Shown here one piece after another: positions 1,755 through 51,538 of a stretch of 64,000 nt of DNA (within the stretch, counting starts at the first letter, position 1; every line of letters begins with the position of its first letter). The DNA lies in contig OZ231126.1 of NCBI GenBank assembly GCA_965153355.1, positions 37,882,001 to 37,946,000 of the forward strand, read 5' to 3'. The notes beneath the pieces were generated by a model. The model had not been told where the DNA came from, searched no databases, and saw nothing but the letters and a program-made list of their open reading frames with translations. A program made the translations under genes and the position numbers. Origin of the DNA: Flaccisagitta enflata (Eukaryota).

Positions 1755-1787
<33 letters not shown>

Positions 1788-1947: not shown

Positions 1948-1982
<35 letters not shown>

Positions 1983-2020
1983 TCTTTTCTTTTTTCTTTT
2001 TTCTTTTTTCTTATTTCTTT

Positions 2021-2075
<55 letters not shown>

Positions 2076-2455: not shown

Positions 2456-2800
2456 AATTGAGGATAGTCGATTTCTTTGATTAAATTTTTCTAATCGTCA
2501 AGAGGTGAAAAGTCGATTCGATGAAGCCACTTTTTTAAACGCGAAATCCATTATTTCCTATTTTTGCCTTGTTGTTTATTTCTTTCTTTAAATTTCGTTT
2601 TCCAATTAGATTTTTTTGCCCATTTCTGTACCCTTTTCTTAATCTCGATTCTCGACACTCTTCCTCCCGCACCAACATCCATTCCTCGTCTAGGGATCCA
2701 TTGCACTGAGTTCCCCAACCTTTTACTTTGACTTCCTTCTTTCACTGTTCATCATCTACCACATGCAACAGTATTCTTTCCAACCTTATTTCTCTTGCCA

Positions 2801-2983
2801 ACTTACTCTTCATTTCCGTCAAATCCCACCTCTCACGCACTCAACCCCCATCACTTGTCTCTCGCCTCCACACCCTCTCTTCCCTCACCATCACTTACTC
2901 TTCATTTCCGTCAAATCCCACCTCCCACGCACTCAACCCCCATCACTTGTCTCTCGCCTCCACACCCTCTCTTCCCTCACCAT
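2801..2983. repeat. Direct tandem duplication of a ~92-bp unit
   Basis: acttactcttcatttccgtcaaatcccacc...cctcaccatc occurs twice back to back. Confidence 0.85.
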
Positions 2984-3103
2984 CCATTCTCCTTCCAATT
3001 TTCCCATCATTTCTTTTTACGCTCCTGCCTGCTTTTAAGATACTTTAAACTCCATTGTCCGCCTTCTCTCCCCCACCACCACCACGCCCCCATCATCCCG
3101 CTC

Positions 3104-3194
<91 letters not shown>

Positions 3195-4889: not shown

Positions 4890-5094
<205 letters not shown>

Positions 5095-5170
5095 GCAGCA
5101 AACCGTTTCCGTTTCTACCTGTTTTCACGCGTCACTAATTGAAACCGGATTTTTCACAAACGAGTGATGG

Positions 5171-5264
<94 letters not shown>

Positions 5265-5286
5265 GGATGATGATTATCATCATTAC

Positions 5287-5324
<38 letters not shown>

Positions 5325-5325
5325 A
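5171..5325. repeat. (CAT)n microsatellite
   Basis: Near-pure CAT run; source of poly-H/poly-M/poly-D ORFs. Confidence 0.95.
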
Positions 5326-5758
5326 CTTCATCATCGTCAAAGTTCACAGTGATTACTATATCGCCTTATCGTAAAACAAGGCCAAGTAGGCCAATAAGAT
5401 GCGACGCGTGGATTGTCGAACGAATGCGTTTCCGACCGACCGACCAACCAACCAACCGACGGACACAGCCAGTTTGGAGATGCTTTGTCGCACCTAAATA
5501 ACTTCTCGAACAAAAAAGAGTTTCATTAAACAGTTACACCCAATTTCAAAAGTAACGGAAATCCGCCTATAGCGGATATGTAACTTTGGTGTATTTTCTT
5601 TTAATCTCTTCATAGGCAATAATGGAAATCCGCCTATAGTATTTGAAATTGGTTAGTCCTTTGACATCCGTTATTGCGCCTTTTTGCGGGGCTCAACTAT
5701 AAAATGACGTTTCTCCATTGCATTGACAACGGAATTCATGACATCGTCGTTTCTGCTA

Positions 5759-11612: not shown

Positions 11613-13154
11613 TTCGCTTTTATCTTATTATCTTTTTCTGAAACTGTATATATGATGAAATAAGAATTTTGGTTTTCTATTTTCTTCTTTTTTTGGGGGG
11701 GGGGCATGGTGAATAAATCCTGATCTTATTTACGAGATTATGAAAATTGGTCCAATTGTGGTTGAATTTGAATTTGCAGACACCTCTTTCATTTTTGTAA
11801 GGATCGAATTTGGACTCTAAAAACACTCATTTTGAGAGTGTTGATATTTTCTTTGCTTTATGTTTAAGAATAATATCTCAGGAAAAAAATCGTTTATCCT
11901 AAAAAATTTCGTGGAGCTCTGCTCCCAAACGAAAAAAGCTTTGCCGTTTGGAATCTTTAGCTTTCACTGCAGAAAACTTATGATCCTTGAAACAATGCTC
12001 TACAATGTTTAAACTGCATTATCAAATTCTTTTAAGGAAATAATTTTTTTTAATTTTTGAGGAAATTAAAAGCATAAGTTATCCTTTTGCGTTTTGTGCT
12101 TATCAACTTTAAAGATAGAAAAAATTGTTTCAGATCAACTAGGTAACTCTATATATAGCATATATGCTTTAATACAGGTTTGTTTTGATAGAGAATGTGA
12201 GTTTTTCTGAAATGATCACTAGTTATTACAGATGATTTGTTATAGAGCAGTGCTCCATCAGAATTTTTTTAAGGATGAACGATGTTTTTTTTATCAAATT
12301 CCAAGCACCGTGCCCGGACTTTCTTTACTTTTGTCATCTTCCCGTCATCATCCTCATCATCCCTTTTTTTCCTTTCCTCCTTTTTTTCCTTTTCTTTTCC
12401 TCTTCGCGTTTCTCCTCTGGCGATGGCGATGCGTCTTTGACTCTTCCATTCTATATACGTTGGCTTTATTCCTTATTTTTTTTTCTTTCATCTCATCTTT
12501 CCTCTCCCTGTCTCTGTGTCTCTCTTTCTCTCTCTTTCTTATAATGTCACTCCAATGATAAATCCAATGGATATAAACCAAGAGATAAATCGTCACATAC
12601 ATGATTCATGATGATCGCCAACTAAAAGTGATTACAATTTCTACCAAGCGGCTTTCTCCAGCGTAAGACCTTATTGAACAATTTCTTTTTAATTATCCTT
12701 TTGTTTCTTTTACGCTTTTCGCTCTTTCCTGTTTGTCTATCTGTCTGCCCGCTCCTCCCATTGTGTGTTTGTTTATTTTTACTCTTTTATTTATGTTTGT
12801 TTGCTTGTTTTTTCCTCCCTGATTTTGTATTTTTGTCTCTATCTGCCAATCTGGATTTCGGTCTGATTGTCTATCTGTCTGCCTGTCTGTCTTCTTTTCC
12901 GGTTGTCTGTCTGAGTGTCTCTCTGTCTGAATGTCTCTGTCTAAGTGTCCTCTGTCTAAGTGTCTCTCTGTCATATTTTCTTCCCCTTACGCCAGCATTA
13001 TCGTCTCGAAGAGATCTTTTGTTTGAACGGGAATTCGGTTGACAAACCAGGCATCGCATTTTCTCGTCTTCGCCGCTTGAGGCCGCCACCGGTTTTGCTT
13101 CGTCGCGTTTCTATCCTCGTAAAAAAATCCTTGTCATTTTGACGTCTTAGAAAT

Positions 13155-13280
<126 letters not shown>

Positions 13281-13538
13281 GAGACAAAGAAAGAGACAGG
13301 GATAGAAACAGAGACAGAGATAGAAAGAGAGAGGTAGAAAGACACAGAGCCAGAGAGCCAGAGAGACGCAGAGAGACAGGGAGGAAAAAAAGCGTTTTTT
13401 TTTTCTTCAGCAAACCCTCTTCTCATTCTCCTATCTATATTCTATGATAACCGTTTCCTTTTTCTCCGCCGCCTGATATTTCTTTTTCTTTTTGATATTC
13501 TTTTTTTAACATATTATCATGAAAATTTCTTTTTTTTT

Positions 13539-13828
13539 CAGGGGTGTATAAAGTTGAGTATTCCCCCCCCGGTGGGGAAGAAAATCAAAAGTTTGAAATG
13601 AAGAAAAAAGAAAATTTTTGAAGATCTAACATTTTTGGTAGTACCAAAAGGTAAAATACAATTACTACAACACAATTTAACACTATCTAAACCTAAAATA
13701 TACTGTTTTCTAGCTTTGAGGGGAAGAAAATCAAAGATTTTGTAACATAATGCAACGCGTCGCGGGGAAGAAAATCAAAGGCAGGGGGGGGAATAAAATC
13801 AAAAGCCGCTAAACTATATACACCCCTG
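13539..13828. mobile_element. hAT-type MITE (290 bp)
   Basis: TIR CAGGGGTGTATA...TATACACCCCTG flanked by TTTTTTTT on both sides (8-bp TSD-like); internal GGGGAAGAAAATCAAA motif about four times. Confidence 0.75.
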
Positions 13829-14253
13829 TTTTTTTTCTATTCCTGTTTCGCTTTTTTCTTCTTTTTTTTCCCCAGCTTCTGCCAAATGCAAATAACATTT
13901 TTCCCCTTATATTTCTTCGGGTTTTTTTTTCTATTTCTACTTCATGAACTTCCTTCCTGATTTTGCCCCCTTACGGTTGGCGAAATCAAGTCAAATCATG
14001 CAACATGCTCATTTAGTCATTTTCAATTCCTCCCCCCCCCGCTTCTTTCTGCCTTTTTTCTCTGGTCAGTTGACCGATTCAAAAGCCCATTGCGTTGGAC
14101 TTTTTCTCGGACCTCCTTCTTGAACCTTTCCTTGGTTTTTACCTTGTGCGTCCTCTGCACGGTTTAGTCCTTCTATTTTCTTTTCCTCAGTCGCTTCTCT
14201 CCCCGTCTCTCTTTGACTTTTTCTGTCTCTATATCTCTCTGTCTCTCTCTCTG

Positions 14254-20646: not shown

Positions 20647-21208
20647 CTGATGGCACCTGACGCAATACGACGCCACCTGATTTGGCACATCAACCTTTTC
20701 CAACTCCACCCTTTTGCCCTCTTAAAATTCATCCCCGTCGTCCTCAGTTGCCTTTTGGGTAGCAGCACCGAGGGGGACTCTTGTTTGTTCATTCGTTTGT
20801 TCGTTCTCTAGTCCATTCGTCTTTTCTTTTGTTTGACCATACGTCCCCTTCTCTAGCCGCTTAGGCCTCAAATCTGCCCGCTTAGTTCTCAAATCATCCC
20901 TCTCAGGCCTCAAATCAGCCCTGTCAAGCTCCTAATCAGCCCTCTCAAGCCTGGAATCATTCTTCTCAAGCTTCAAATATGATCTCTCCGGCTTCAAATC
21001 AGCCATCTCAGGCGACAAATTAGCCCTCAAAGGCTATCTTAGGCCCTCATTCAGCCCTCTTTGGCGCCCCATCAACTTTCTCAGGCTGGACGAACAAAAT
21101 TCCCCTTGTGTTTTATAGGACTTTGTTACCTTCAAAGCAACGGGAATTGCTGACCACTTACCCTTGGCCGACTGGCTTTACAATCTCGCGCGTGCGCGCG
21201 AGACAGCA

Positions 21209-21560
<352 letters not shown>

Positions 21561-23070
21561 TACGGATAATCAAAGTGACAGGGGAAAGGATTAAAATACA
21601 GAGAATTGTAAAAATGACAGAAAGCGAGAGAGCGAGAGAGAGATGAAGACAATGATGAAGATAGAGAAAAAGAAAGAAAATGATAAAACGAGAGAGAGAG
21701 AGAAAAGAGAAAGCGCGAGCGCGCGCGCGAAATGTCAACGCGCCTCCCCGCCATTGATACCACGCCGCGCCTGCACCTGGCATCGACTCATCACGTGGAA
21801 AACGTTCTTTCGAGGACGACGCCTCCTCTGGTCTCTACTACCCTTTCGCATCTGCCTGCCTCCTTCTTGAATTTATGTTTTGGAATGGCACTCTAGGATA
21901 AGAATGCTACCCTTTCGCATCTGCCTGCCTTCGACTAAAGTTTATACTATGGAGTGGCACTCAGGAATAGAAATGCCTCCTCTATCCTCTCGCATCTGTC
22001 TGCATCATACTTAGATTTTTGTTGTTGAATAGTTCTGTTGAAAAAAAAAAAAACGTTTTCTCCTTTCCTAGTCACATGTGCGATGGGCCGTCTAAGATGG
22101 CTGCGTGCCACTAAATTTTCGAATCACACTTATGGAGAATACTGCTACAGTGCTATCATCATTGCCTTTGCTTACCTCTCATTCAAAATGGTGTAATTCA
22201 ATCACATTCTTCATAGGAAATGTCTCACTTTCCCTCTATTTAAGGACGATATGATGTTAAACCATTTGACCGAAGTGGTCTAGGGTTTTCTTGTATGAGA
22301 ACCGTTATGCCGACAGGAAGATAAACTGGGTTTCAAGGAAAATGCTTATTTTTCTTGCGCAATTATCAATTTTCCTCCATGTGGTGCTTGTCGCTCCAAC
22401 ATGTTTTCTTGCAAAAAAAATGAACAACGTGGTTAACGGCCGAATTGTGGGCCATTCATTCACTCACTCACTGAGTTATAAATCGACGACAATAAAAACA
22501 AGTTTGAGCTGCAAGTGTAAAGTTGTTGCGCGAATGAATCTGAATAACATCGAAACAACGACGGGGAAAACAAAGTCGCAATTTCTTCTCAGATACAACG
22601 CTACTTTCCGTTTTATCCATTTCGGGTTTTGAAAAAAATTAATGAAAAAAAAACAAACAAAAGAAATATTGTCATGTGTCACTGACGGCTTAACATTCAA
22701 AAGAGATGATGGTTCAAAAGTACATCCATGGCTCGGAACTTCGCTGTGATAGGACACATGGATGGTGGGCCATCGGCTCTTGTGGACTCTACAGCATTAG
22801 GTTGTTGAATGGATCGGCCATTCTGTAATGGTGTCGTTTTTCTGACTCTTGAATTATGTTCAGGTGTCAGACGCCTTTACAGATGAATAATTTAGTGCTG
22901 GGTGGGTAGAATCCAGGTAGCGAATGGGGTTGGGAGTCGTAGCAAAAGTGGTGGTCATATTTTCGAGACAAGAAGAAAAAAATCTCTCTACGCCGTGAAT
23001 GGTTTTCGCGCCTGCTGTTCCAATATTCCCGTGCGAGCTCAAATGTTCGATGTACCAATTTTGCGTCCTA

Positions 23071-29723: not shown

Positions 29724-30210
29724 TATCCGCAGTTTTAATTCTTTAAGAATGTTGGGGAGAGGGGAGAGAGAAAGGAAAGAGAGTGAGAAAAAAAAACAAC
29801 ATGGAGACTGATAACAGCATTTTAGCATCTCATCCATCTTAACAGCTAAATCAACGCCTAGCCAAAACTTCAAAACGTCAGGTTGGAAAGAGTTTGTAAT
29901 TTCCAGTTATTGCGCGGCTCCGTCAACAGACCAACTGATAGTTGACTTTTAGAATATCAAGTATTGCGAACTCGCGATTTAGAAAGAAAACTAACGGAGG
30001 CAAATGTGGCGTCGTGGGTAAAAATTAGATTTTTTTTCTTCTTATTTTGCTTCTTCCATGCCTTAGAGAATGAAGGAGAAGAAGCAATGAAAACACGGAA
30101 GGGAAATTGGAAGGAAGAAAAAAAGAAAATGATGAAAAAAAAAAGATTCTTAAAGAAAAAAAGCAAAACTGAAACATAGAAAAGCAAAAAAGAGGGGAAG
30201 TTTCATTGGA

Positions 30211-30440
<230 letters not shown>

Positions 30441-30860
30441 CCGACGGACGGACCGATGGTTGTACCGACATAAGTAAACAGTAGGGGAAAGACCTACAAA
30501 CATAATAATGGAAAGAGCAGATGCAGACAGACAGACAGAGAGACAGACCGACAGACGCACAGGCAGACAGACAGACAGAAAAGGCAGAGGTGAGACAGAT
30601 AGACAGACAAGCAGATAGATACAGTGCAAGAGAAAAGAGGAAGATAGGAAAACGCACCTCGCAGCTGTGACAAGGACTCAGAATGGATCAAAAGGAGGAA
30701 AAGCATAAAACTCGCGGAGGGTGCAGAGAGACTGCGATGTAAAGAAGGAAAGAAGAAAAAAAGAAAGAAAGAAATGCGGTAAGGTGGAAAAAAAATGTCA
30801 CTGCTGCGTAAACAGTGGGAATCAATGGCTGCCCAAATATTGCCTTTCAACCAGACAGAG

Positions 30861-30940
<80 letters not shown>

Positions 30941-31022
30941 ATAGCTAACCAGACAGACAGACAGAGAAATAATGGAACAGGGAAAACAGGGAGTGAGAAA
31001 GAACACGGGTATTGAACTCGCC

Positions 31023-31866: not shown

Positions 31867-33042
31867 TATATATCATGAAAGATTATCCATTCAGTTGTTG
31901 ATAATGGTTTTTCACGCTAGGGCCGCTGCATCAGTATGCGTGGAATCCCTGCTATTGGGATAAAATGAAAAGAGAAATTATGGAGGGAACAAAAAAAAAC
32001 GCGCAAAAATATTGGGAAAGAAAAAAAAAGAGAAAAAATGCAAAAACTGGCATTTAATTCGAATTTTGAAGATTCAGTTCCCCTCCAAAATTCTCGTAGA
32101 TGTGACGTCTGGGTTTTTGTTTGTCTGTCTGACTCTCTGTTTGTTTGTTCGGCTTTTTCTGTCTGTTCCTTTCTTCCTATCAGACACTCAAGATTCTTTA
32201 GCCTTTTTGCAATTCTCCATTCATAGTTTCCAAGGTTATGGAGGCAAAATGAAAAAAAAAGCTTGAAAAGAAGAGAAACAGAATGGCACCATGTCTACGG
32301 AGAAAAAGAATGTAAGAAGTTTGAAGACATTCAATAAAACATCGTCAAGAAACTCAAGTAGTTCGCAAAAACAATTCCGCAGTCCAGTGATGCTACAGGA
32401 GCAAGATCAAGTATTGAAAATCAAACTCGTTTTGAATTAATCTTTTTCCAAATCATGTTGAAAGAGTTCATTTCCGTTCGTCCGTCATTGTGTTGTTTTT
32501 CGTTGGACAAATCCCCCGGCGTACATGTAGAGCCATTGTTACGGGCAACTAACCAGGAAATACAGTAGATCGCGTCTAGACTTGAGATAACGGGGGCATG
32601 CATTGTAGGAAAAAGAATGAAGCTAAGGCACTGATATTTGGAATATAAACTAATAAGATAATATTTCATTGCCCATGATAGTTGGTTACCATGGAAACGC
32701 ATTTTCATGTATTTACTCTAAAATATCAACATTTTGAGGAAATTTTTAAGGGAACATTGTTAAAAACAAGTTTTCTAGAACTTTCCCACAGTATGTGCTG
32801 TCAGAATATCGCTTGTTCAGCGGTTGCTAGGAGTTGTCACACATGGATATGCTCACTAGCTATGGCCAAATGAGCGATATTCTTACAGAACATATTGTGG
32901 GAAAGCTGTGTAGCACATTTGATTTTAAGCAATGTTCTTTAAAAAATCTCTCAAAATATTGATATCTTAGCGAGAATACATGGAAATGTGTTTCCATAGC
33001 AACCGAGTATCATATGAAATAAATCATTCTTTTAATAGTGTA

Positions 33043-33831
33043 TGTGACATTCTTCACATTCCCCACCATATGCAGGCCTAGAAGCGCTCGATCGGACGCA
33101 TTCGACTCCGCGGATCCCGAAGAAGAGGAGGGGCTCTCTCGCCATCGAAAATCCAAGATGGCGTCTGCTCGACTGCAGAGTGGAGGAAATCGAGGAAGAA
33201 GGAGAGAGATCTTCGATCGACGGAGGAAGGGGAGGAACGCGCGCGCGCACCGGAAGCGCTGACTTCCGGTTGAGGATTGATGAACTATATCTCCTCAACC
33301 GCTTAGAGGAGAAAAGACTTCGACCCCTCTATCGAATTCCCACGACGTGACGAATCTATTTATCATTGTTTCATTGCTGCCAAATAATTTCAAATCTCGT
33401 GATGTTTTGATTCATTTTTTGTTATTTCCAGGTTAAGTAAAAGTAGCTTCCCTGACTTTCTTACTGACATTCGATTACACGATCTCAGTTAAAGACTCGA
33501 TTTTTGATGCTTTTTCCCCGACTTCCCTGCCCTGCGCCTAGATTGGAAACCGTTCGACAACATCCGTGTAAGTCCTTGACCTTTTATCATTTTGGCGCCA
33601 TACAAGAGTATCCTTCATTGATGTACAGAGCTTGTCCTAACCTTTTTCCTTTTTCTCTGTCCGTCAGGATTCCACGAATAGACTGATTTCGCGGACAACT
33701 TGACCGCTCATCTCAACAATTCGTTCTAAGCGGGTGTGCGTTCCAAATCATTAGCGCAGCTACGCAGTGGAGTCAGTTCTCGCGATTACGCATCAGGAGC
33801 TTGCTAAGAAACTAGACGCTAAACGATCTCA
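33043..33831 (+). repeat. 5' LTR (789 bp)
   Basis: TGTGACATT...CGATCTCA; by eye identical to 44690-45479 except one T-run indel (~33590) and one G/A substitution (~33606). Confidence 0.97.
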
Positions 33832-33843
33832 ATTCGTGGAATC
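33832..33843 (+). promoter_or_regulatory. Putative primer-binding site of non-tRNA (self-complementary) type, ATTCGTGGAATC
   Basis: Directly abuts the 5' LTR, lacks the leading TGG of tRNA PBSs, and is the exact reverse complement of 33668-33679. Confidence 0.7.
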
Positions 33844-33875
33844 AAAAACCATCAACGATCCACGCAACGTCAACG

Positions 33876-36800
33876 ATGTCGACCGCCAACAACAACGCCA
33901 ACGCCGACGCGATGTCAATGCCGCCACCTTCGCTGCCCAATCAACGCAGAAAAGCCTTTCGGCCAACCGACTGCGTGTCCGTCGTTTCCGACTCATCCGT
34001 CTACGCGGGCGCAATGGACCCCGTGGCTACGACGCTTCGCGGATTACGAAAGGCGCTACGCAACACGCGCAACGCCTACATGTCGGCGTTGAAACAAGCC
34101 GATACCCTCAACGACGATGATATATTGGACTTTTACCAAGATATGGACTGCCTTCGAAAGGAAGTGTGGTTGGCGGCGTGGCGACTTGTCAACCAGACAA
34201 AGACTTACTCACATGCAGAGTCGACCAACAACCCCGACAAAGCGGCGTCACTGTTATCGACGGCCGAAAGCTCATTGACGGAAGTACGGAAACTGTGGGA
34301 CCAATCATGCTTCCACGACAAAAACACTTTTGCGTCGCATTTATTCCTGCCGACCTACCACGACATCCACGACGAGTCACCGGAGACTGGAGCAAAACGC
34401 GCTCTCGAGATGACGATGGGGTCGTCGACGCATTTCGTCCAGTCCCTTTCACGACGACGCAAATCGACGCCGAACACGACCGGCGACGATGGAGACGCGG
34501 GAGAGGACGACTTGCCCGTCGGTACGGAAGCAGCGAATCTCAATGCAGCGGATCAACGTCACAACGCGCCGCCCCATACGCCAGGCGCGATAGAAGACGC
34601 CGAGCAGATACGTATAAACTTTGAACCTCCGACGCCGGTGACGCCGGCGAGGTCGCGCTTCTTGTCGGCCAGACGACGCGATGGAAACGTCATGGCCGAA
34701 CGACGACGCCGACCTCCCTCCAGGCGCCGTTGGCGGCGCCCCTCCCACACAAGATCTTCTCAACATGCTACAGCAGTCGATTGTCGACGGCGACAAAAAC
34801 GCTCAAGGCGACGCGATGGTGCACGTCGTCCAACGTCTTGTCAACGACGTCAACCAAGTTCGACGCTCGGTGGCGAGAGAAGCACGCGCAAATACGCGAT
34901 TCCGTCTCAGCTCGCAGTCTGTATCTCAACAACGCGAAGAGAACGCCCGGCAGTTGACGGCAAACATCGCATTAGACGCAGCCGTTACTGCCCGGACAGA
35001 CGCGGTCACGGCCGGAATTGACGAGAGGAAAAGAAGGGAGGAGGAGGAGAGGAGGAAGAAAGAGAAGGAGGAGGAGGAGGAAAGACAACGCATCCACGCT
35101 GAAGAAGTGAGAAGGAAGGCAGAGGAGACGAGAAAGGAGCAGGAGGAGAAAAGGAGGACGAACTTGAAAAACAAGATCGCACAGGAGAAAAGAGAGAAAG
35201 AGGAGAGAGAGGAAAAGAAAAGGAAAGAAGCAGAGAGGAAAGCAGAGGAGGAGAGAAGGAAGGCGGTGGCAAAAAGAGACGCGGAAGAAAGAAAGAGGAT
35301 GGAGGAGAAGAAAAGACGCGAAGAAAAGAAAAAGGAGGAAGAAAAGAAAAGGAAAGAGGAGAGGAGGAGAGGAAGAGGAGAGAGGCACAAAAGAAAAGCC
35401 AGCAGAGACAACTACCTTCCAAAACGCCACCCCCAGCCGCACGTGAACATCCTCTCCACGAGCAACTGCGCACGAGACAAGATGCAGCGGAGCAAGAAAG
35501 AACGCGATGGATCACGCGGACGCAATGGCAAGGGTCCAACAATTGATCAGCGACCTCAACCTGGAGGACAGTGTCGTTTTGCAGACACGTGCTCCACCGT
35601 GTAAATCGACGCCGCCATCACCAAGCTCACCCATCATCGTCCGCCAGATCGCGGGTGATCTTCCAGCTCCGCAAGCATCCCGAAATGCACGCGGGAGTCA
35701 GCGGCCCCTGGTCGACGACGTCTTCGATGACGAGGGGTTCGAACGCGTCGACAGACGGAAGTCGAGGAAGACGCCGCCCCCAACGCCGTCGCCTCCTACG
35801 TATCAAAGACGTCAAACCGGAAGTGACTCCGCGCGAAATGGCCTCGCGCATTCGCAGTCCTTCGCCGAGAGGATGAACGCAGCCTCTTTCATCGACAACC
35901 CAATCGCCTACGACGCCCGCGTCAGAGCAAAGGACGTGGGATTGAGGGAAATGCGCGCAGCACGTCCAAGAGAAGCGTATGGATACCTCGAGCCGATCGA
36001 CTATATCATTGCCAAGTCTAAATTCGAAAATGCCGCCTCCAACATCGAGCTAGACGAAATCGACAAAGTAACTGAATTGGCCAATGTCTTCGCGAATCCA
36101 GCGAAGGAAATTATCGACGGTCAACAACTCATCATCAAGGCGCACAACATGCGCCGTGTCTACAGCACCTTGTGGAGACGCCTGGACGAGATGTTCAACA
36201 CGAGCGCCAACCCATTCCAATCGGCCGTCGACAGCATCTGCAGGAAAGGAAAGGTTCCGGAAAACGATATGAGAGCCCATCAATCATTGATTGGCACGTT
36301 GTACAAACTGGAAAACGTCGCAGAATTGCTGAATGTACCTGGAGAGTGTGATCGTGACGTCCACATCCGCCGCATCATCAACGCGAGGGTGCCACACATC
36401 TCGACGGACTATTGGAAAGCGAGCGCGCGTGAACAAGCTCGCCATGGCACGGCTTACGGCTTCCAAGAACTCATCGAGGAGGTGAAGCATTGGGTGTCGT
36501 ACAACAACCTCAAAGAACCAACACGCATGGCGCCAAACCAACGAAGGTTGCAGCGACTGCAGTTGGTCCGGCGACGTTTAAGGAACAGCTCGTCAACTCA
36601 CCTCCGAAGCAGCAACCCAACGACATCTGCAATATTTGTGGAGGTCGTCACAATTCTCATTCGTGTCAACGTTTTGGAAGCCATCCCATCAGCAGAGGAT
36701 CGTGTGAAGAAGTTGGCGGAGAAACGTCTATGCTTTCATTGTTTCTGCCCAAACCATTCGGCGCGCGACTGCAAAGACAAGCCAACATGCTCATCTTGCA

Positions 36801-36997
36801 ATAAGAGACACGCAACTTTGCTGCACGACCGCCAATTCAAGCCAAAAGGGAATGGAGAAGGAATCACGTTCAAGACGCCGAATGCCGCCGCATTAGCCGC
36901 AGCCGCTGCCGCCGCCAAAACCGTTCCTCCAGCGCCCCCAAGCAGCTCGTCGACGGATGACTCTGCATCTGATGAAGGAAGAGTGATGGAGGCGTGA
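33876..36997 (+). CDS. gag: BEL/Pao Gag, about 1040 codons, interrupted by ~5 single-base frameshifts
   Basis: ATG 33876; E/K/R coiled-coil at 35020-35400; helical core with LWRRLDEMF; knuckles CNICGGRHNSHSC, CFHCFCPNHSARDC, CSSCNKRHATLLH (36627-36826), the triple-knuckle pattern of BEL/Pao. Confidence 0.85.
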
Positions 36998-39900
36998 CTC
37001 GCTGCCACCTCCGCGATGAGGACGGTGGTCGCGAGGATGATGTCACGCGACCGATTGTTCCTGTAAAAATCACCAACGCATCGACGGGCCGTTCCACCGT
37101 AGTGTTGGGGATGATTGACAGCGGTGCGGATTGTGACGTTTTATCGCTTCAAATCGTTAACAAATTAGACTTACCAACTGAAAAGATGCTGATGCGCGTG
37201 CATACGGTCAATTGTGAAGTGGTGGAGGAGAAAGTTTTGGCGTCCTTTATCCTTTCATCGATTGACGAGGAATACAACGTCCACATCAGCAACGCACTAA
37301 CGGGAGAGTTATTGACGGGTGAAGCTGATATTGCTCCATGCCAACGCGACTTCACAAATCAATCTCATCTTCGCGATATTCCATTTCCAAAAGCAAATGG
37401 TCCTGTCCAATTGATCATCGGCGCCGCCCATTACGACGCGACGATGCCTGTGGAGGCAAGAAGAGGTCCATCAGGATCTTTGACAGCCTTCAGATGCGGT
37501 TTTGGATGGACTGTAGCAGGGAAGAGTGGACGAAGATCAGATGATACCGCTGTCATTAACGCAATCCACGTGGATAACGTCGCATTGAGCAAATCTCTCG
37601 ACCGCATGTTCTATCACGACTTCGCCATTGTGTCGGAGGAAGAAATGGGCCAGTCTGAAGAGAATCGTCGCGCGGTGAAGCGGGTGATGGAGACGATATA
37701 CTTCGACGAGAAACTCCAAAAATACGTCGTGGGACTTCCATGGCGCTATGACAAGGAGAAGATCATCGAGATTATCAAGTCTGTCAACGCACGCGCGATG
37801 ACGATTAAGAGGACAAAAAGTCTCCGATACAAACTCTCAAATAATCATGACCTCCGCGATCGCGTCTTCAAAGAAATGGACAAATTTGTGGATACGGGCG
37901 TGGCGATTGAGATTGATCCGACGAATGACGACGCAAGCATCTCATCGCCCCACTGGTACTTACCCATCCATGTGGTGGAGGAAAGAAATAAAACGCGGAT
38001 TTGTCACGATGGACGCGCGGAGACTGGCGGCATTTGCCTCAATGAACTACTGATTGGAGGTCCGAATATCATGAACGTCTTGACTGAAGTTCTTATGAAA
38101 TTTCGCCTTTATAAAATCGGTCTGATGACTGATATAAAGGCGTTCTTTCATAATGTCCGCGTCCATCCTGAGGACGCGGACACGTTCAGATATATGTGGT
38201 TCACTGACAAAAGCATGAGAGAGGCAGTCGTGATGCTCTTCTTGGCGCACATTTTTGGATCTGTGTCATCGAGTCTCGTCACCAGCTATGTTTTACGCCA
38301 TCACGCGGAGAAGATCAAGCCCGACTTCCCGAAAACGTCTACGAAATGTTGAGGCATGCCTTCTACGTTGATGACGGCTCTGGTGGTGCGGATTCAGTCG
38401 ACTAAGCACTGCAGTTGAAGCAGGATCTCATCGCCGCCATGAAGAGCGGCGGATTTACTTTGACTAAGTGGAAGTTTAACGCGGTGGAGGTGATGGACGA
38501 GATCCAATGTCGCGGTCACTTGAGCGCCCAACTTGAGGAGCCGACGAAGGTCTTGGGAGTCCAATGGTTGCCGTCGACGGACTGCTTCATCTTCAGATGC
38601 GATCCAGAAGCATGCAAGAGGGTGGCAACGACTCCTCGCGAATTGGTCTCCATGCAAGCCGACAACTATGATCCACTGGGATTCACAGCGCCCCGCGCCC
38701 TTGAAGGGAGGAGGTGTCTTCAGTTGACGAGAGCTTCCGAGAAGGGATGGGATTCGACGATGGAGGAGGCGTTAATCAAACGTTTCGCCAAATGGTACTC
38801 TGCGACTCCATTGCTGATCCAAATTGAAATTCCGCGCCACATTGAATGGGGCATTGTGAAGGCCGTTCGACGAGAAGTTCACATCTTCTGCGACGCCGCC
38901 ATCCCTGGTTTGGAGTAGTGGGCTATTGGTTGGTGGAAGATGAGGATGGAACAATCTGCTACCATTTTGTGCGCCTAGGCTCACGTCGTCCCTCTTGATG
39001 CGTCAAAAGCGTCGCACCACAACTCGGTGCCGAGGTTAGAAATGACAGCGGCAGAGAAAGCGGTGAAACTCAAACTTTTCATCAAGAGGACCATTCCAAA
39101 GGTGACCGAGGATATGGTGACGCTCTGGTCGGATTCAGAGGCGGTGCTGAAGATGATTTTCGACCATAAATCTAAACGTCCGAGCTTCTTCGCAAACCGA
39201 CTTTCAAAATCCACAGCGGCTCAAGCGATTCTCAATGGAGGTGGGTTGATTCGGAGAATAACCCCGCTGGACTATTGTTCGCGGGGTATTGACGCCAGCG
39301 ATAAAGAAAAATGGGACATCTTCCATTTCGGTCCGAAGTTTCTCTACCTTCCCAAATCTGAGTGGCCGGTGATGAATATCGCGACGGCGCCGGAGGCGTC
39401 AATCAACGCCGTCGCGACAGAAACGGTGGAGGAAGAGGAAGGAGAGAAGGAGAAGGAAATGTTCGCCTATGCAGTCGCCGCCCGTCGCCAGGAGTGGGTG
39501 GCGAAATTGCGTTTGATCGCCGTGATTGTGAAGTGCGCGCAGCGATGGAGACAGAAGGTGAAGGCAAAAACTAGAGCAGCGGCGACGACGCTGCCAAATC
39601 CATACTCTGTATCTATGGCTGAATTGTACGACGCACAACGCCGCTTGATCAACGCAATCCAGTTCAAACATTTCCATGGAGAATAACTAAGTTGAAGCGG
39701 TGGGAAAAACGACGCCGCTCATCAACGACGCCGGCGCCAAAGTGATCTGTAAGACTCTACGCCATCACAATCCGGTTGTCGACGAGAAAGGAACGATGCG
39801 TGTCGGGAGCAGACTTGTGAATGCGGATATTGGCCATGATGAAAAATACCCGATGATTCTCCCGTCGAAAGATCCAAACGTCGCTTCTCTGATTCGCCAT

Positions 39901-41002
39901 GTCCATCATCAGGATCTTCACGCAGGCCCAAAACACGTCTTGTGCCAACTGCGACGCTTTGTGTGGATTCTTCGAGGTCTCCAGGCGGTAAAAACAGTCA
40001 TCCACCATTGCGTTACGTGCCAAAGGAACTTCAAAGATCCTATGAAGCAGCAGATGGCGCCTCTTCCTCAACGTCGGCTCATTCCAACGGCGCCTTTCGA
40101 GGAGGTGGGACTCGACTGCATGGGTCACTTCCTGGTGAAACTGAACGGAAGGGCGGATCATAAGGTCTGGGCAGTGGTGTTTACCTGCATGGTTTCGAGG
40201 GCGGTGCATGTGGAGGTGTTGTTTAAAATGGACACAGAGGCAATGATCAACGCCATCATTAGATTCGCAGCGAGACGGCAAACGTGCGTCGATTCATATC
40301 AGACTGTGGCACCAACCTGGTTGGGGCAAATCGCGTCATGAAGGAGGAGATGCAGTCGTGGAACGCGTCGTCGACAGTGGCTCTGCAGCAGCATGGACTC
40401 CAATGGGACTTCATTCCTCCGGGGACTCCTCATTACGGCGGCGTATGGGAAAGGGTCGTATCCCTTTTCAAAAAACATTTGGCGTCCATTACTTCCGGTC
40501 ACGTGCTCCATTACGACGTCTTCCAAACGGTTGTGATTGAGGTGGAAGGAATTCTCAACCGTCGACCTCTCACGCCTTTGAGCGACGATCCTAGCGATAC
40601 ATCAGCGCTGAGGCCGGTCAACATCTTGCATCCGTCTACGTTCTCACACTCGTCGGCAGCTATTCTTCCTCCAAAGACCGGAAACGACGCCGTGGGAACG
40701 AGATGCCGATGGAGAAACGCACAGGCCCGCGTTGACGCCTTCTGGAAGGTATGGCGCGCCGAATACCTTCAGTTGCTGCACGCAAGGAGCAAATGGACAA
40801 AATCGGAAGTGAATATCAAAAAGATGCATTGGTCATCATCGTTGACGAGACGCTTCATCGGCATCAGTGGTCTTTGGGACGCGTCGTCGAAGTGGAAGGA
40901 TCTGGTGGTCATGTCCGGAAAGCACAGATCCTACGCCCCGACGGCAAGATTGTTCTCAAGGATCGGTCGAAGATCGTCCGATTGGAGCTGGATCCAGATT
41001 AA
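36994..41002 (+). CDS. pol: BEL/Pao Pol (aspartic protease, RT, RNase H, integrase), interrupted by several frameshifts and one in-frame TAA (38403)
   Basis: PR GMIDSGA (D at 37117); RT WYLPIH, KTRICHD, LNELLIGGP, DIKAFFH, FG, YVDD (38364-38375); RNase H HIFCDA, PRLE, WSDS, NPADYCSRG; IN H..H..C..C, GLDCMG, ISDCGTN, GGVWER, FWKVWRAEYL. Confidence 0.93.
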
Positions 41003-41547
41003 AAACGGATAAGTGTGAAGAGAGAGAGAGAAAGTAGACCAGAGAGAAGCACAAGTGTTTCTATTTGTAAAGACTATACATGAAAATGAGGATTTTTTCT
41101 CTCATGATTATTTTTTGGTCTTGTTTACTTTTTCTCAGTCGGTCTGTCTGATATGTCTTTGTGTGTAATGACAGGAGAGAGAGAGGTACATGGTGCCCCA
41201 GTCAGTTGAGAATGTCTGCATGATTGACTGACAATCTAAATTTTGCCATGCCATTTCAATCTTGTATTGACCATATAAAGGCATTTGTTCGTCATTTTCT
41301 TTTCCGTTTTATCCATATCATTGACTGTTGAGTGTGGAGGTCATTTGAGGCGCTGATCGAAGAGTTTTTATTTCTTTGTCTGCGTATACCATTTAATCTT
41401 CCTCAATGTTAATGGATATGTCTTCCTCTTTCCGTTTGGTTACATCTCGAAATCTGAATTTTCTCCAAAAACAGGCGTTTACACTATCTTACGCTAAAAG
41501 CTTCCCCTTGTCGGTATCGTCGCATAACTGTTGCAGAGAGATCCATC

Positions 41548-43875
41548 ATGTCGCAGCAGAACAACCAAGGCACGCCGGACGAGATCCGCGAAGCGAGGAG
41601 GCAGCGAATGGCGCAAGCCCAGGCCGATTTGGTGAGGAGTCATGAGGAGGAGACGAGGAGGATGGAAGAGGAGCGGGCGAGGGTGGAAGAGGAGAAGAGG
41701 AAAGTGGAGGAAGAGAAGAAAGACCCGGAGAAGAAGAGGAGGAGACAGGAGCAGGAGGCCAGGGCAGCGTCCCTCAGAGAACAACGCAGGCTTCGCGGGT
41801 TGCAACAGTCCGTCGTTGGAGGAGCTGATGACGTCATCGACGGGGTCAGCCATCTCTTCAACGACTCGTCTTCCGGCGCGTGGACCGTTACGGACCCTAT
41901 TCCTGCTCGGGCCCTCAACGCGTTCGATGCCAACGCCTTTGCCGACAAGCGCGCCGCCGGTGAAGCGCGTCGTCAAGCCGACGATGCGCTCCAGGCGGCA
42001 AGAAAGGCGAAAAGAGAACAAGCTGCCAACGAAAGCTTCGATACGGCAGTTTCGGGAGTGGAGGCGCTCATGGGGGAGTCAACGTCGGACTCCACCACGG
42101 ACGCCCCCCCGCCGCCACGCGGAGCAGAGGAAGTGGAGCGACAAGATTTGAATGACCCTGACAACTTAGACTTTGACGATGACGATTTACGACGACGACG
42201 ATGATGACGACTACGACTCAGGATGACAGTGAGGGCGATGATATGGACACTAACGAACATGACGGAAGGGGAGAGGGACTTCCCCCCGGGAGGTTGCTCG
42301 ACCCGCTTCTACAGGCCCCCAAGGGGTACTTACTGCTCCTTCTCTTGCTCCCCACCTGCCGCCGCCGCAGACGTCGCAGGCGGTCGTGGAGTCGCCGACG
42401 TTACAAGTAACGCCGGCCGCAGACTCGACCGCGCCGGCGCCGTTTCAAGCATCACCTGACGCGACGCTGGTGATCCCGCCGCACATCAGTGACCTGTCCT
42501 CCATCTCGCAGGAACAAGCTGTCGAATTGGTGAAGATCTACAACGCCCAAGTCGACGCCCTCATCGAGCGGAAGCACACTGCGATATACCACGACACGCA
42601 GCGTCGCTTACGCGCGGAGAGAGATGCTCTTCATCCACAAGCCGAGCGAAGAGCATATGTTCCGACGCAAAGAGTCAGAGACGAATTAGTCGAAGAGGAC
42701 GGAGAGATGGCGACGGTTGAAACACGCGAGACGCTCCAATTGTGCAAGATCATCAACATCAGATCTATTGGAGCAACGGCGGACATGGGAAATGGGACTT
42801 TGAGAGACATTTCCCGCGGAAAAGCCTCAAATCAGAGAAAAAGACGACGTGAAGGAGCCGCTCGTCGGATCGCGGAGGCTATTCGTTCGACCGGAAGTGG
42901 CAGCGATCAGCGTCAGACGCCCGCGACGCAGGATCCTCCACAACATCATCCGAGAGACGATCGACGAGCCAAAGCTGGCGCCAACAATCTACAAATCGAA
43001 GTGAGAGAGAAGAGACGTCGGGTGAGCAGGGGTGGACCGCCGGATGCATCCGCATCGCATCATCGACGGTGATGGATGGTCCCGCGAGATTACCACATGG
43101 TCCTGCTCCCCGGCCTCCTCCTCCTCAACGCCAGCGGTCACGTGACATTTCACCAATCCGTGTCCCAACCCAAACGATTTACGACAACGGATAATCAAGG
43201 TGGCGCTGGGGCAGCCGCAAATCTGCTCCCCCTCCTCCTCCTCCTGTCAACGACCAACAGCGACGAGAGGAGCAAAACGCCAACAAAAAGAAGAGGAATC
43301 GTCGTCCAAAAAGGAAGTCTGGGGATGCGTCGACGTCCAACAGGTCGTCAACGTCGACTGCATCCGCTTCTTCTCCTTCACATCGCCCTCCCCGATCGCC
43401 GGAAGACCTTCTGACCGAGGCGATGTTGGCCGTCGCCATCAAGTTGCCAAGTCATCCTCGGTCAAAGGATATTCAAAAGGTTGTAGACATTCTTCCGGCG
43501 GCATTCTATCCCAACTCATCTCCGATGGATCGCGCGATCTACGCTGCCGATCACGCCGTGGATAGAGCCAGATCGGCGAGGAAGCTCATCGAACAATACA
43601 ACTTTAGGATGAAGGTTGTCGGTGAGCACGACGCGAAAGTTGCTCAGATGGCCCAGCTGCTGTCCGACGCGAAGAAGGAAGCCGACCGCGTCCGCGCGGA
43701 GTTCTCTCAGCCCGATGGACAGATGCCATCGACTTCCGGGACTCAACGCCACTTCGCGTCGTCGAGCAACAACGCGCCACCTTCCGGCAGAAACCCCCCT
43801 CCACGCCACAGTAGGAAAGACGACGCGCCATCCTATCGTGGAGGAAAGGGCGGCAGGGGTAAAGGCCGGAAGTAG
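41548..43875 (+). CDS. Accessory ORF3 of the retrotransposon, unknown function, about 775 codons when ~5-6 frameshifts are bridged (track pieces 41548-42204, 42201-, 42386-43072, 43423-43875)
   Basis: GC-rich coding-like block between two AT-rich spacers; ATG in catcATGt; coiled-coil N-terminus, acidic and Pro-rich linkers, basic clusters, C-terminal RGG tail; no signal peptide or TM segment. Confidence 0.65.
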
Positions 43876-43990
43876 AGGGTCTCGTCGCCATGATCCCGGC
43901 CATCGTCTTCCCACTTCAATCGCGCGTATCATACCGACGTTTCACGTCGTCGCGGAAGACTAGCGGTTGATCATCCAATGGCGACTCGAG

Positions 43991-44997
43991 ATGCTTCCGG
44001 TGACGGACAGGCCGGCCGTCCTCGCTTCTCTAGAGGGCGGTCGGGGGAGGGGGTCCCACCGGGGACCCCCCTGCGACTCTCCCGCGTAAGTGTCGAGGGG
44101 TAGGGGGGGTCTTGAATTGCTCATGAATCAATTGTACCAAATTAGAATATTAAGCGTATGATTTGAGAATGAGAATCAGTTCTAACTCTCCTAATCCGTT
44201 TCTCCATACCCATTCCGGGTGTCAGGGACGTACGTGCTGGAGTGATGGACAATCCTAACGGGGCGTTGGTACGTAGTATAGTATAGTTTATACACTAGTA
44301 TAGGCCACTTAGCGTATAGTCTAATTATTTATTTCAGTCCATCATTCCCGTGGATCTAGTATCGTTACCTTTTTTCTTGTTTTAGCATGAAGACTGGATG
44401 CAGAATGGAGCAAGAGGAGCAATTCATAACCAGACCGTAGCGATAGCCCGGACAATCGACGGTGGTAGGTGTTTCTGCTCCTAGAACCCATTTTCTGAAT
44501 CGTCTTATTCGCGCGAGATCCACGATATTTATAATAGCGTCTTTGTAATATTTAAAAATTTTGTTTTTGAGATGAGCCCCGGATGTTGTCATAGCTTGTA
44601 AATTTTTAAAATGAACGGTATTCCCTGACAAGAAACTAGTTAGATACGAGATTTGAAATTTTTTTGGCAAATATTTCAAATGGGGGGACTGTGACATTCT
44701 TCACATTCCCCACCATATGCAGGCCTAGAAGCGCTCGATCGGACGCATTCGACTCCGCGGATCCCGAAGAAGAGGAGGGGCTCTCTCGCCATCGAAAATC
44801 CAAGATGGCGTCTGCTCGACTGCAGAGTGGAGGAAATCGAGGAAGAAGGAGAGAGATCTTCGATCGACGGAGGAAGGGGAGGAACGCGCGCGCGCACCGG
44901 AAGCGCTGACTTCCGGTTGAGGATTGATGAACTATATCTCCTCAACCGCTTAGAGGAGAAAAGACTTCGACCCCTCTATCGAATTCCCACGACGTGA
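43991..44997 (+). CDS. Hypothetical spliced ORF4: exons 43991-44085, 44226-44268, 44386-44464, 44723-44997 (163 aa, or 125 aa from ATG 44245); last exon lies in U3 of the 3' LTR
   Basis: Three GT-AG introns (GTAAGT..CTAAC..CAG; GTACGT..TTTTAG; GTAGGT..TGCAG) whose phases keep one frame open to TGA 44995-44997; exons GC-rich, introns AT-rich. Confidence 0.4.
44678..44689 (+). promoter_or_regulatory. Polypurine tract (AAATGGGGGGAC)
   Basis: G-run immediately upstream of the 3' LTR TG; preceded by hairpin ATTTGAAAT(44651)...ATTTCAAAT(44681). Confidence 0.8.
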
Positions 44998-45479
44998 CGA
45001 ATCTATTTATCATTGTTTCATTGCTGCCAAATAATTTCAAATCTCGTGATGTTTTGATTCATTTTTTGTTATTTCCAGGTTAAGTAAAAGTAGCTTCCCT
45101 GACTTTCTTACTGACATTCGATTACACGATCTCAGTTAAAGACTCGATTTTTGATGCTTTTTCCCCGACTTCCCTGCCCTGCGCCTAGATTGGAAACCGT
45201 TCGACAACATCCGTGTAAGTCCTTGACCTTTTATCATTTTTGGCGCCATACAAAAGTATCCTTCATTGATGTACAGAGCTTGTCCTAACCTTTTTCCTTT
45301 TTCTCTGTCCGTCAGGATTCCACGAATAGACTGATTTCGCGGACAACTTGACCGCTCATCTCAACAATTCGTTCTAAGCGGGTGTGCGTTCCAAATCATT
45401 AGCGCAGCTACGCAGTGGAGTCAGTTCTCGCGATTACGCATCAGGAGCTTGCTAAGAAACTAGACGCTAAACGATCTCA
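44690..45479 (+). repeat. 3' LTR (790 bp)
   Basis: Near-identical to the 5' LTR; followed by TSD GTGTA. Confidence 0.97.
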
Positions 45480-46837
45480 GTGTATATTCCAAATATTAGC
45501 CCACTAGCTTCATTTATTCTTCCATAATGCTTGCCCCCGTTATCTCAAGTCTAGATGAGATCTACTGTAGCAAATTCAGATTGTACCGAAGAAGCAATAA
45601 TATTTCTGCGGTTTCAAGTTTCTGGTATTATTGTGTTTTTCTATCCCAATTCATTTTTCGTTTCTTTCCTTCGAAGGAAAGACAGAAATCCAATTATATC
45701 CCACGGAGAATTGCTCCTGCTTGATGCGAAAAATGCACATTGCACAAATGAATTTGGCAAATTCCTTTGCCTTGCATTTTCCTTCAGGCTTCTTTTGCTT
45801 CCTTCTTTTTTTCTGTTTCTTTTTCTTTTTCTTTTTTCTTTGTGTTTTTTTTTTTCATGATTCTGCTTTTTATCATGTTTTAATCCCCCGTTTCTCCATC
45901 TTTTTTTATCATTCCATTGATATTTGATGCCTTCCTCTTCTTATTAAGCTTAAGCTCTCTTGTTATTTTTTCACGTTCTTTGCCATTTCACATCAACGTC
46001 TTCCGGTTTGAAGGTTATTACTAAAGTTTGCAGACATTCAAAAATCAAACAAGCTGACGATAGAAGTTAAACTGGTAGTGATGATAAAACATCACTAACG
46101 AGCCATGCTTCTCTCATAGTTCTCGTTGATATCTAAATTTGTACCTTCCGCTTCCGGATCCATCATCAGATGGGGAGTGGGTGGGGGTCCCTTCTTTATC
46201 CTAGACGCTGTCCCCTTCCACGCATATCAATCTCGCACCAGTCCGCCCCAGAGAAAAAACTCGTTCGCTCCTAGGGTGAGGCTACATCGTCAAACCAATT
46301 ATTTTGATGCTAGTCTACCACTTTCTACATTTAATCTGCCCATCTCCTTCATAACCCTGGAAAGACAGCAACGCAAAGCAAAGAGAAGAAAAGCAAAGAA
46401 AAGAGAAGCAAAGCAAAGCAAAGCATAGAAAAGAGGAGCAAAATAAAGTCAGTTAAAACTGTAACTGAAACAAAGCAAAATGAAGTCAATTAAAACTGAA
46501 ACTGAAACTCTGAAAAAGATAGGGAAAAAACAAGGGGAAAAAAAGAGGGGGGGAAAAGGGAGAAAAAAAAAGAACCGGAGTCATTGTATCTGTAGGTTTT
46601 CTCTCATCAATCAATGCCATCAACGTTTTTTCCTCTCTTTTTTCAAACGCTATCTTTCGGCGAGGGAGCGGAGAAGGGAGGGGGGGGGGTTGGGAAAAGA
46701 GGGGGCAATGGTGATGATTCAGCTCGCGTAGAATATATCCATCATTTTTGGGCAAAGAGACCCAAAACCGACAAAGCTTCATTATTTTTCGTTTTAACGA
46801 AACTCGAGTATCACCGCTTGTCCTCTCTATTTTAAGT

Positions 46838-49423: not shown

Positions 49424-49840
49424 TTTTTAAGTGCGTCCTCGCACTTCTATAAGAGGTCATGTCCGTTGGTTGGTTGGTCGGTCGGTGGGTTGGTCGGTCG
49501 GTCACGCAAACGTTTGAAAAGTGCAAAACGGCTGATTCAGACGTATTTTTTCATTCCTATCACCTTTTATGCCTTACCACATTCAATTTCATTCATTCAT
49601 TCATTCATTCATTCATTCATTTACTCACTCACTCACTCACTCATTCATTAATTCACTCATTCATTCATTCATTCATTCATTCATTCATTCATTCATTCAT
49701 TCACTCATTCATTTATTCATTCATTCATTCATTCATTCATTCGTTCATTCATTCATTCATTCATTCTTTCATTCATCAAAAACGTTCATTCACAAATTCT
49801 TAATCAAGCGAGCACTTAATGGCCTTTACTTGGCCTTGTT
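49424..49840 (+). mobile_element. HINE-like element (second subfamily) with internal (ATTC)n array
   Basis: TTTTTAAGTGCGTCCTCGCACTT 5' palindrome, (GTTG/GTCG)n, (ATTC)n at 49590-49775, GAGCACTT...TGGCCTTGTT end. Confidence 0.7.
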
Positions 49841-51039
49841 TTTTTCATATCCTCAATATCGTTGCCGTCACGATAACACCAACCAGAACCATTTTGCGAC
49901 GATTCTGCCCCTCTGCCGCAAACTTAACGAACTTCCGATTTTACGCTCGGGCTAGCCCTTAAGACAGCGATTGTTATGCTAAAATTGTCTGGACCGACTG
50001 ATCGATACGGACTTACGGTTTGTCATTAAATCGAGTACACTTTTCATTCCCTGGCTAAGCGACTCCATCTAGGAGGCTGTGTCCGTAGGTACGAAGGCCG
50101 GGAACGCGAAAAGTTGGATGACTTGAAATCGGCTGAAAAGCGGTTTTTGAGCACTACCGCCCCTGCCCAGCCACATTACCGCAGCCGCCCTGCCCCGTAC
50201 TGCCCCTGCCCTTATTACCGCCCCTGTCTAGTGCCCACTCGCAAGCGACACTTATTGGCCGGCCGTGTTTCTGACCTTGTCTACATAAGGACCAGTAAGA
50301 TTTTTCTGAGGTTGGGACGTCCTTAATTTTCTGCAGATTTTGGTTTTTTTTTTCAAAATGTACCACAGTTTTCTTGTAATATTGTATTTCTTTATACTTT
50401 TATTATCAATTTACAAAAAGCAAATATCATACTTATTAATTTGTTTTAAGCTAGATACACAATATATGTGATGTACATATTAAATTATAATCCTCTCTTA
50501 TTCCGAAGTTACGTTCCATATTGAGTATTGAGTATTGAGTATTGAGTATTGAGTATTGTTTAATGAAAATATACTTAAGATTTAAAATCCAGAATAAAAT
50601 TTTCCTTTTACTTGCAGCTTTTTAGGGCTCTTCCTTAAGAAGTCCTCAAATTTTGGCATAATTTCAGCCTTTTTGTTCTTAATCAGAAAAAAAGGAATTG
50701 AGAAGCGAATTGAGACAGAGACAAAGTAAATGAGACAGAGACAGAGACAGAGAATACAAAGAGGAGACAGAGAAAAAATCGTCCGCGCTTCTTCTTTATT
50801 TGATTTAATTTTTCTCCCTGTTATCCGTTTTTGATTTGTTCTATTTAATTCGTTATCTCACTTCCATCCATATTTTTCTCTGCTTCATCTTTTTTCTCTC
50901 TCCTTCTCTTCTTCCATTAGGCGTTCTCTCTCCACTTCTCTACGACTCTCATCTCCCTTCTAGAATTATTTTTCTCTTTCATTTTTTTTCATTTTTTTTC
51001 TTCATTTTTTTCATTTTCTTTCTTGTTTTCTTGTTTTCT

Positions 51040-51044
51040 TGTTT

Positions 51045-51135
<91 letters not shown>

Positions 51136-51139
51136 TTTT

Positions 51140-51203
<64 letters not shown>

Positions 51204-51222
51204 TTTTCTTCTTTTCTTGTCT

Positions 51223-51261
<39 letters not shown>

Positions 51262-51298
51262 ATCTTTCTTTCTTCCCTTCTTTCTTTCTTTCTTTCTG

Positions 51299-51374
<76 letters not shown>

Positions 51375-51400
51375 TCATTCTGTCTTTCTTTCTTTCTTTC
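51040..51400. repeat. (CTTT)n tract
   Basis: Direct reading. Confidence 0.95.
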
Positions 51401-51538
51401 TCTCTTTCTGTCCTTGTACATCTAAAAGAGGATTTTGTCCGTCGGTCAGTGTCTTGTCATGTCTCATTTATACACTCCCCAATCCCCATCCACCTTCTTC
51501 CGCTTAGTTTGTTGATTCATTCATATTAATTTTTTTTA

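Follow-up and report, generated by a model that had tools for sequence, protein, structure and literature searches.

How does an LTR retrotransposon begin reverse transcription when the sequence directly behind its 5' LTR complements its own upstream RNA? The question is raised by an element in the window, the whole 64,000-nt stretch of Flaccisagitta enflata DNA that we analysed, numbered here from its first base. A sequence-only reading of this DNA had proposed that the element belongs to the BEL/Pao superfamily and may dispense with a tRNA primer, using the 5' end of its own transcript instead. We examined the boundaries and classification of the element, the complementarity and its expected frequency by chance, the other primers that could serve it, the predicted RNA fold, the candidate transcript ends and distant relatives.

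A complete BEL/Pao retrotransposon with firm LTR boundaries

The window carries one complete BEL/Pao LTR retrotransposon of 12.4 kb (Table 1). No other BEL/Pao copy and no other LTR pair was found within the window, and the pairing evidence from this element is that of one copy. Aligned with each other, the two LTRs show a single substitution and a single 1-nt indel (~99.7% identity), and this alignment, together with the GTGTA duplication on either side, makes the boundary at 33831 firm and the spacer between LTR and primer-binding site (PBS) zero, as had been claimed from the letters alone.

The BEL/Pao assignment, also proposed beforehand, was upheld by protein domains. Pfam searches matched Peptidase_A17 (PF05380, 8.1e-14), Integrase_H2C2 (PF17921, 1.6e-07) and DUF5641 (PF18701, 1.2e-07), and part of Peptidase_A17 was matched once more in another frame; PF05380, PF00078 and PF18701 are present in the database protein relatives, and the domains of the element and its relatives together identify it as BEL/Pao. 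The structural marks of the superfamily were found as well—TG..CA LTR ends, a 5-bp duplication (4–6 bp being expected) and a polypurine tract. Canonical BEL/Pao elements (Belpaoviridae, Semotivirus: Tas, Pao, BEL and Achilles) share these marks with our element, as they share a gag-pol with Peptidase_A17, integrase and DUF5641.

The reading frames of this copy are broken, which we counted against the self-priming reading. In gag, for example, the match to the database protein P0030 covers 33876-34688 in one frame and continues at 34672-35088 in another, with the switch near 34672-34688. Between the end of the integrase and the 3' LTR lie a further ~3.7 kb (41013-44679), an unassigned region by which the element exceeds the length of BEL/Pao elements described so far, 4.2-10 kb according to ICTV (PMC8742986). 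Three ORFs of this region (41458-42204, 42263-43072 and 43195-43875) gave no Pfam match above noise, and the region could hold an env-like or other extra gene. Two further inverted repeats were observed near the 3' LTR: a local hairpin, ATTTGAAAT/ATTTCAAAT, just before the polypurine tract, and a 15-nt perfect inverted repeat of 44646-44660 with 45033-45047 (also 33386-33400), linking part of U3 in the LTR with a site that lies ~30 nt ahead of the polypurine tract.

Table 1. Features of the element in window coordinates, with the basis on which each was placed
Feature	Position	Strand	Basis
Target-site duplication GTGTA, 5' copy	33038..33042	.	same 5 nt after 3' LTR
5' LTR, 789 nt, TGTG...CTCA	33043..33831	+	LTR-LTR alignment, direct-repeat search
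Initiator-like TCAGGA; RNA would begin at A33666, 2 nt ahead of the 12-mer	33664..33669	+	motif
5' arm of the pair, candidate self-primer GATTCCACGAAT; RNA cut predicted after 33679	33668..33679	+	perfect complement of 33832-33843
Downstream-promoter-element-like GGACA, +28..+32 from A33666	33693..33697	+	motif
GGAGTCAGTTC, 11-mer common to L001 (45-55), containing TCAGTT	33769..33779	+	window-L001 comparison
3' arm of the pair, candidate primer-binding site ATTCGTGGAATC; adjoins the LTR with zero spacer	33832..33843	+	complement of 33668-33679
gag region, three frames in this copy	33876..36997	+	protein match to P0030
pol region: protease-like, RT, Peptidase_A17, integrase, DUF5641; several frames	36976..41012	+	Pfam, protein relatives
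Polypurine tract ATGGGGGGAC, adjoining the 3' LTR	44680..44689	+	sequence
3' LTR, 790 nt	44690..45479	+	LTR-LTR alignment
Second copy of the 12-mer, within the 3' LTR	45316..45327	+	exact search
Target-site duplication GTGTA, 3' copy	45480..45484	.	LTR alignment flanks

A sharply bounded 12-nt complement at the edge of the LTR

The central claim of the earlier reading, that a segment of the 5' LTR has its exact reverse complement in the 12 nt that adjoin the LTR, holds both in the sequence itself and in an exact search, which placed the 12-mer at 33668 (+), at the equivalent 3' LTR site 45316 (+) and at 33832 (-). The bases beside both arms are non-complementary, so the paired unit of 12 bp is sharply bounded, and one of its edges falls at the U5/PBS junction; such an abrupt loss of similarity at both edges shows that the pair is no remnant of a longer inverted duplication that has decayed. 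Neumann et al. (2019) predict self-priming from a complement to the 5' LTR of at least 10 bp that starts 0-5 bp after it (PMC6317226). On the same scale, our element shows 12 nt at offset 0.

How often such a pair should arise by chance depends on the background. The figure first put forward, 790/4^12 (~5e-5), proved too optimistic for a window this rich in repeats: 174 of 63,198 window positions, in 36 clusters, start a 12-mer with its reverse complement in the preceding 790 nt. Most of these clusters sit in the microsatellite flanks. Within the element, where 11,635 positions were tested, only one cluster besides the PBS was seen (45033-45036). A search for the 12-mer allowing at most one mismatch gave four matches, a number reached by 0 of 100 shuffles. 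For a position fixed beforehand, the chance of the pair is ~1e-4 to 3e-3, and the complementarity is well beyond chance.

These counts bear on the possibility that the pair is a functionless inverted repeat that arose by chance, with the true primer site unrecognised or decayed in a defective copy. The abundance of inverted 12-mers in the window would fit such an origin, as would the broken reading frames and the presence in the same element of a second, longer LTR-linked inverted repeat (44646-60/45033-47) to which no role is assigned. Set against this are the near-absence of such clusters inside the element, the start of the pair exactly at the first base past the LTR, and the near-identity of the LTRs, which implies little time for a PBS to decay. 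On balance, we consider a chance origin decidedly unlikely.

A host RNA as a possible alternative primer

The statement that BEL/Pao elements are generally tRNA-primed found support in two papers (PMC8742986, PMC4580426), and this description is itself an argument for an external primer here. In the ICTV account, belpaovirids are described as tRNA-primed, with replication poorly understood, and as having an 18-nt PBS for tRNA-Arg or tRNA-Gly (PMC8742986); for Achilles, a tRNA-Tyr primer site is described (PMC4580426). Against these canonical cases, no tRNA-Arg, tRNA-Gly or tRNA-Tyr site was recognisable in our element.

We scanned 33800-33880 for a tRNA-type start. At offsets of 0-4 nt from the 5' LTR no TGG occurs, in agreement with the earlier reading that the PBS does not open with one, but a single TGG is present in the scanned interval at 33837, 5 nt past the LTR. 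Pairing of a tRNA from 33837 would need a U discriminator and A/U at six of the seven acceptor-stem bases, a combination unlike cytoplasmic tRNAs. With its offset, this TGG just falls within the 0-5 nt allowed for tRNA-type sites in the Neumann et al. survey (PMC6317226), which counts in favour of an external primer, whereas the atypical tRNA end that it would imply counts against one. Pairing through the T-arm, with the CCA end inside U5, was considered and ruled out, as the TGG needed at 33824-26 is not there. ARAGORN detected no tRNA gene in the window (0), and a search of 32900-34100 against Rfam returned four matches, all far under their gathering scores. These searches place neither a tRNA gene nor an Rfam family at or close to the LTR, a point against host-RNA priming, and no candidate primer could be named.

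We consider it rather unlikely, though conceivable, that a host RNA of some kind—a tRNA, a tRNA fragment or another transcript—primes the element and that the helix with the LTR 12-mer is structural. Under host-RNA priming, the helix could keep the PBS masked up to packaging; alternatively, with the 12-mer in U3, it could join the ends of the genomic RNA to help strand transfer. The 5'-3' pairings of yeast Ty1 and Ty3 offer a comparison for an end-joining helix of this sort.

Predicted folding of the leader RNA

In the RNA 33666-33860, the 12-bp helix appears in both the minimum-energy and the centroid fold, while the overall stability of the fold is ordinary (z = -1.66). All 12 pairs are present in the minimum-energy fold for every combination of starts at 33600, 33666 or 33668 with ends at 33850, 33880, 33950 or 34100. 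For these three starts, the mean pair probability of the helix is 0.98-0.99 and the minimum per-pair value 0.91; with an RNA start at 33486, the probability of the helix falls to 0.02-0.23. This fall and the ordinary stability of the whole fold weigh against self-priming. A second stem suggested earlier as a means of bringing the two arms together was only partly recovered: its halves are present (TTAGCG at 33751-33756 and CGCTAA at 33817-33822), but the partner of 33750-55 in the minimum-energy fold is 33803-08. Shuffled sequences gave duplex energies as good in 40 of 200 cases for the window, 102 of 200 for the distant locus L001 and 49 of 200 for L004 (both loci are described below), with a program whose tolerance of very large loops makes the comparison uninformative, and exact k-mer counts were used in place of this measure. 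A helix covering the whole PBS would also compete with any external primer, which is a further point against a host RNA in that role.

Candidate start sites and polyadenylation signals

Self-priming from the 12-mer depends on where the RNA begins. The 5' LTR has four TCAG sites, and only the one at 33664 is followed at +28 by a match resembling a downstream promoter element; across the window, counting both strands, 12 of 418 TCAG sites have such a match. The initiator and downstream-promoter-element consensus motifs applied to 33664 and 33693-97 are those that we take to be standard. Together, the TCAG at 33664 and the GGACA favour an RNA start at the 12-mer, as a candidate site recognised post hoc.

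A competing candidate is TCAGTT at 33773-78, which is a better initiator-like match than 33664, with no downstream-promoter-element-like match at +28. Transcription could begin here instead, which would place the 12-mer in U3 and so prevent it from acting as a 5' self-primer. The 11-mer that contains this TCAGTT and recurs in L001 (Table 1) may mark a start site or another conserved signal; as a possible start, it lends weight to host-RNA priming. In L001, a second near-copy of GGAGTCAGTTC was observed at 209-217, past the putative PBS of that locus.

At the other end of the transcript, neither AATAAA nor ATTAAA occurs in the LTR, and variant hexamers were found at 33436, 33677 (AATAGA) and 33806 (AAGAAA). 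Self-priming requires a poly(A) site downstream of 45327, a region in which only the weak variants AATAGA and AAGAAA are available, which counts against this mode of priming.

A proposed Tf1-like priming scheme

Weighing these results, we take self-primed, Tf1-like reverse transcription to be the best reading of the element, though an even call. The earlier proposal to this effect is sound in its geometry, a 12-bp duplex with zero spacer that falls within the published range for predicted self-priming, and stays conditional in its RNA start and enzymatic steps. To the duplex, position and predicted stability that we observe, we fit a scheme in which transcription start, RNA cleavage and each enzymatic step would follow the Tf1 model. 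The RNA would begin at or just upstream of 33668, and the segment 33668-33679 would fold back across a 152-nt loop to pair with 33832-33843, after U5. The element's RNase H would then cleave the RNA after 33679. The geometry suits such priming, in that the 3' end of the would-be primer faces the last base of U5, and the new 3' end could be extended through U5 as far as the cut at 33680. The resulting short DNA would transfer to the 3' LTR copy of the RNA, in which the 12-mer persists (45316-45327); self-priming would depend on this 3' copy, from which the primer sequence would be recovered once the first strand transfer has taken place, so that new LTRs regain the 12-mer. Finally, the plus strand would copy the retained RNA primer. 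If so, the PBS would be rewritten in every cycle, and this renewal would account for a duplex so perfect and so sharply bounded.

Distant relatives

The close relatives of the element are proteins from short contigs; of the gag relatives P0030, P0032, P0033, P0034 and P0035, several begin with the N-terminus of gag, and their contigs may extend into the leader. An alignment-based search with gag found no related DNA in metagenome, genome or viral contigs, and one with pol found none in viral or genome contigs; in metagenome contigs, the pol search yielded six distant loci (L001-L006), of which only L001 and L004 extend upstream of gag. The leaders are not meaningfully alignable, either between the window and L001 or between L001 and L004. 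Upstream of gag in L001 and L004, there is no CA followed by TGG within 5 nt. An attempt to treat both loci as starting a fixed distance inside their LTRs was abandoned, as no consistently placed CA end could be found.

L001, with 37% RT identity to our element, contains a perfect 9-nt pair of GGAATTCTT (29-37) with AAGAATTCC (176-184). The pair spans a 138-nt loop, against 152 nt in the element, and begins 2 nt past a CA. In the predicted fold of L001, the pairing grows to 15 bp, interrupted by a 2-nt bulge, and a strong hairpin stands directly upstream. As a background, 65 of 30,519 positions in L001-L006 and the element have a 9-mer complement within 175 nt, and a pairing like that of L001 is expected by chance with a probability of ~0.1-0.2 over the plausible PBS zone; with the LTR end of this locus undefined, the pairing is suggestive and not significant on its own. 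Similar geometry with a different sequence is what compensatory change would predict, and L001 is suggestive in this respect too. L004 shows two 7-mers only, which is chance level and a point for the reading of the element's pair as a functionless repeat.

The wider proposition is that a BEL/Pao lineage of marine animals has abandoned tRNA priming and primes with the 5' end of its own RNA, the L001 pairing representing compensatory change; in our judgement its prospects fall a little below even.

The gag frames of both loci are very long (251-2968, 905 aa, in L001; 244-3354, 1036 aa, in L004), in agreement with the ~3.1-kb gag region of the window element. No gag domain of Pfam was matched in them, and their repeats are acidic and rich in lysine/glutamate.

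Comparison with proven and predicted self-priming elements

To our knowledge, fission-yeast Tf1 is the only element for which self-priming of reverse transcription has been proven. In Tf1, the complement takes up the first 11 nt of the RNA, compared with 12 nt in our element, and the cut in our scheme is placed by what is general knowledge of Tf1. The Tf1 case is experimentally proven, whereas ours is read from sequence. Tf1, Tf2, Tj1 and the Tf1/sushi group likewise have a PBS after the 5' LTR that complements their own upstream RNA and not a tRNA, and the primer is made by fold-back followed by a cut (PMC4600332, PMC5445492), as we propose for the element. By its Pfam domains, our element is BEL/Pao and not a Ty3/gypsy chromovirus; it may work like Tf1 without being a member of that group. 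No Pfam match to a chromodomain was found in the element, the ORF at the integrase end (40284-41012) having been scanned at E<=0.01 only.

Beyond Tf1/sushi, the survey of Neumann et al. lists self-priming as reported or predicted for Tcn1, also of Ty3/gypsy, and for TAR of Ty1/copia (PMC6317226). For the TAR lineage (Houba, Osr-1) and the Tcn1 clade, the evidence is of the same type, judged by the same criterion, as for our element (PMC6317226). Those are plant and fungal elements from the other two superfamilies, surveyed in many copies, whereas here there is one copy. In the open full-text literature that we searched, we found no report of self-priming in BEL/Pao, a result we hold as provisional. 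That the mode evolved independently in this lineage, as the sequence-only reading suggested, is something we infer from classification only.

If the self-priming reading is correct, this way of starting reverse transcription would be found in all three LTR-retrotransposon superfamilies, through either repeated convergence or the survival of an ancestral hairpin-priming mode, and primer choice would be evolutionarily labile in every LTR superfamily. It would be a known mechanism in a new variant and not a new kind of mechanism. It would also bear on the proposal that hairpin priming preceded tRNA priming (PMC3601003). In practical terms, annotation pipelines that demand a tRNA-type PBS would miss or misclassify such elements; moreover, the lineage would be predicted to escape host defences aimed at tRNA-type primer sites.

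Genomic surroundings

The element stands out from its surroundings in base composition, with 51-58% G+C inside it and ~35-43% in the flanks. None of the 10 large open frames tested in the flanks was recognisable as a host gene. A search of sequencing runs found part of the stretch in 20 of 24 runs, marine metagenomes included; six RNA runs held small shares of it (0.08-0.18), which are not evidence of expression or habitat. Micro- and minisatellites with periods of 2, 4, 8, 21 and 54 nt are very abundant in the flanks, with arrays at, for example, 1400-5400, 13100-13900, 21100-21800, 30100-31000 and 49500-51500. A dispersed repeat of ~87 nt is present in 12 copies (at 7841, 15842, 18011, 23071, 28747, 48512, 49424, 52941, 62691 and other positions). 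It opens with TTTTTAGTCGCG...GCGACTCTA, a short palindrome, continues into GTCC/GTCG tetranucleotide arrays, and is probably a small non-autonomous mobile element.
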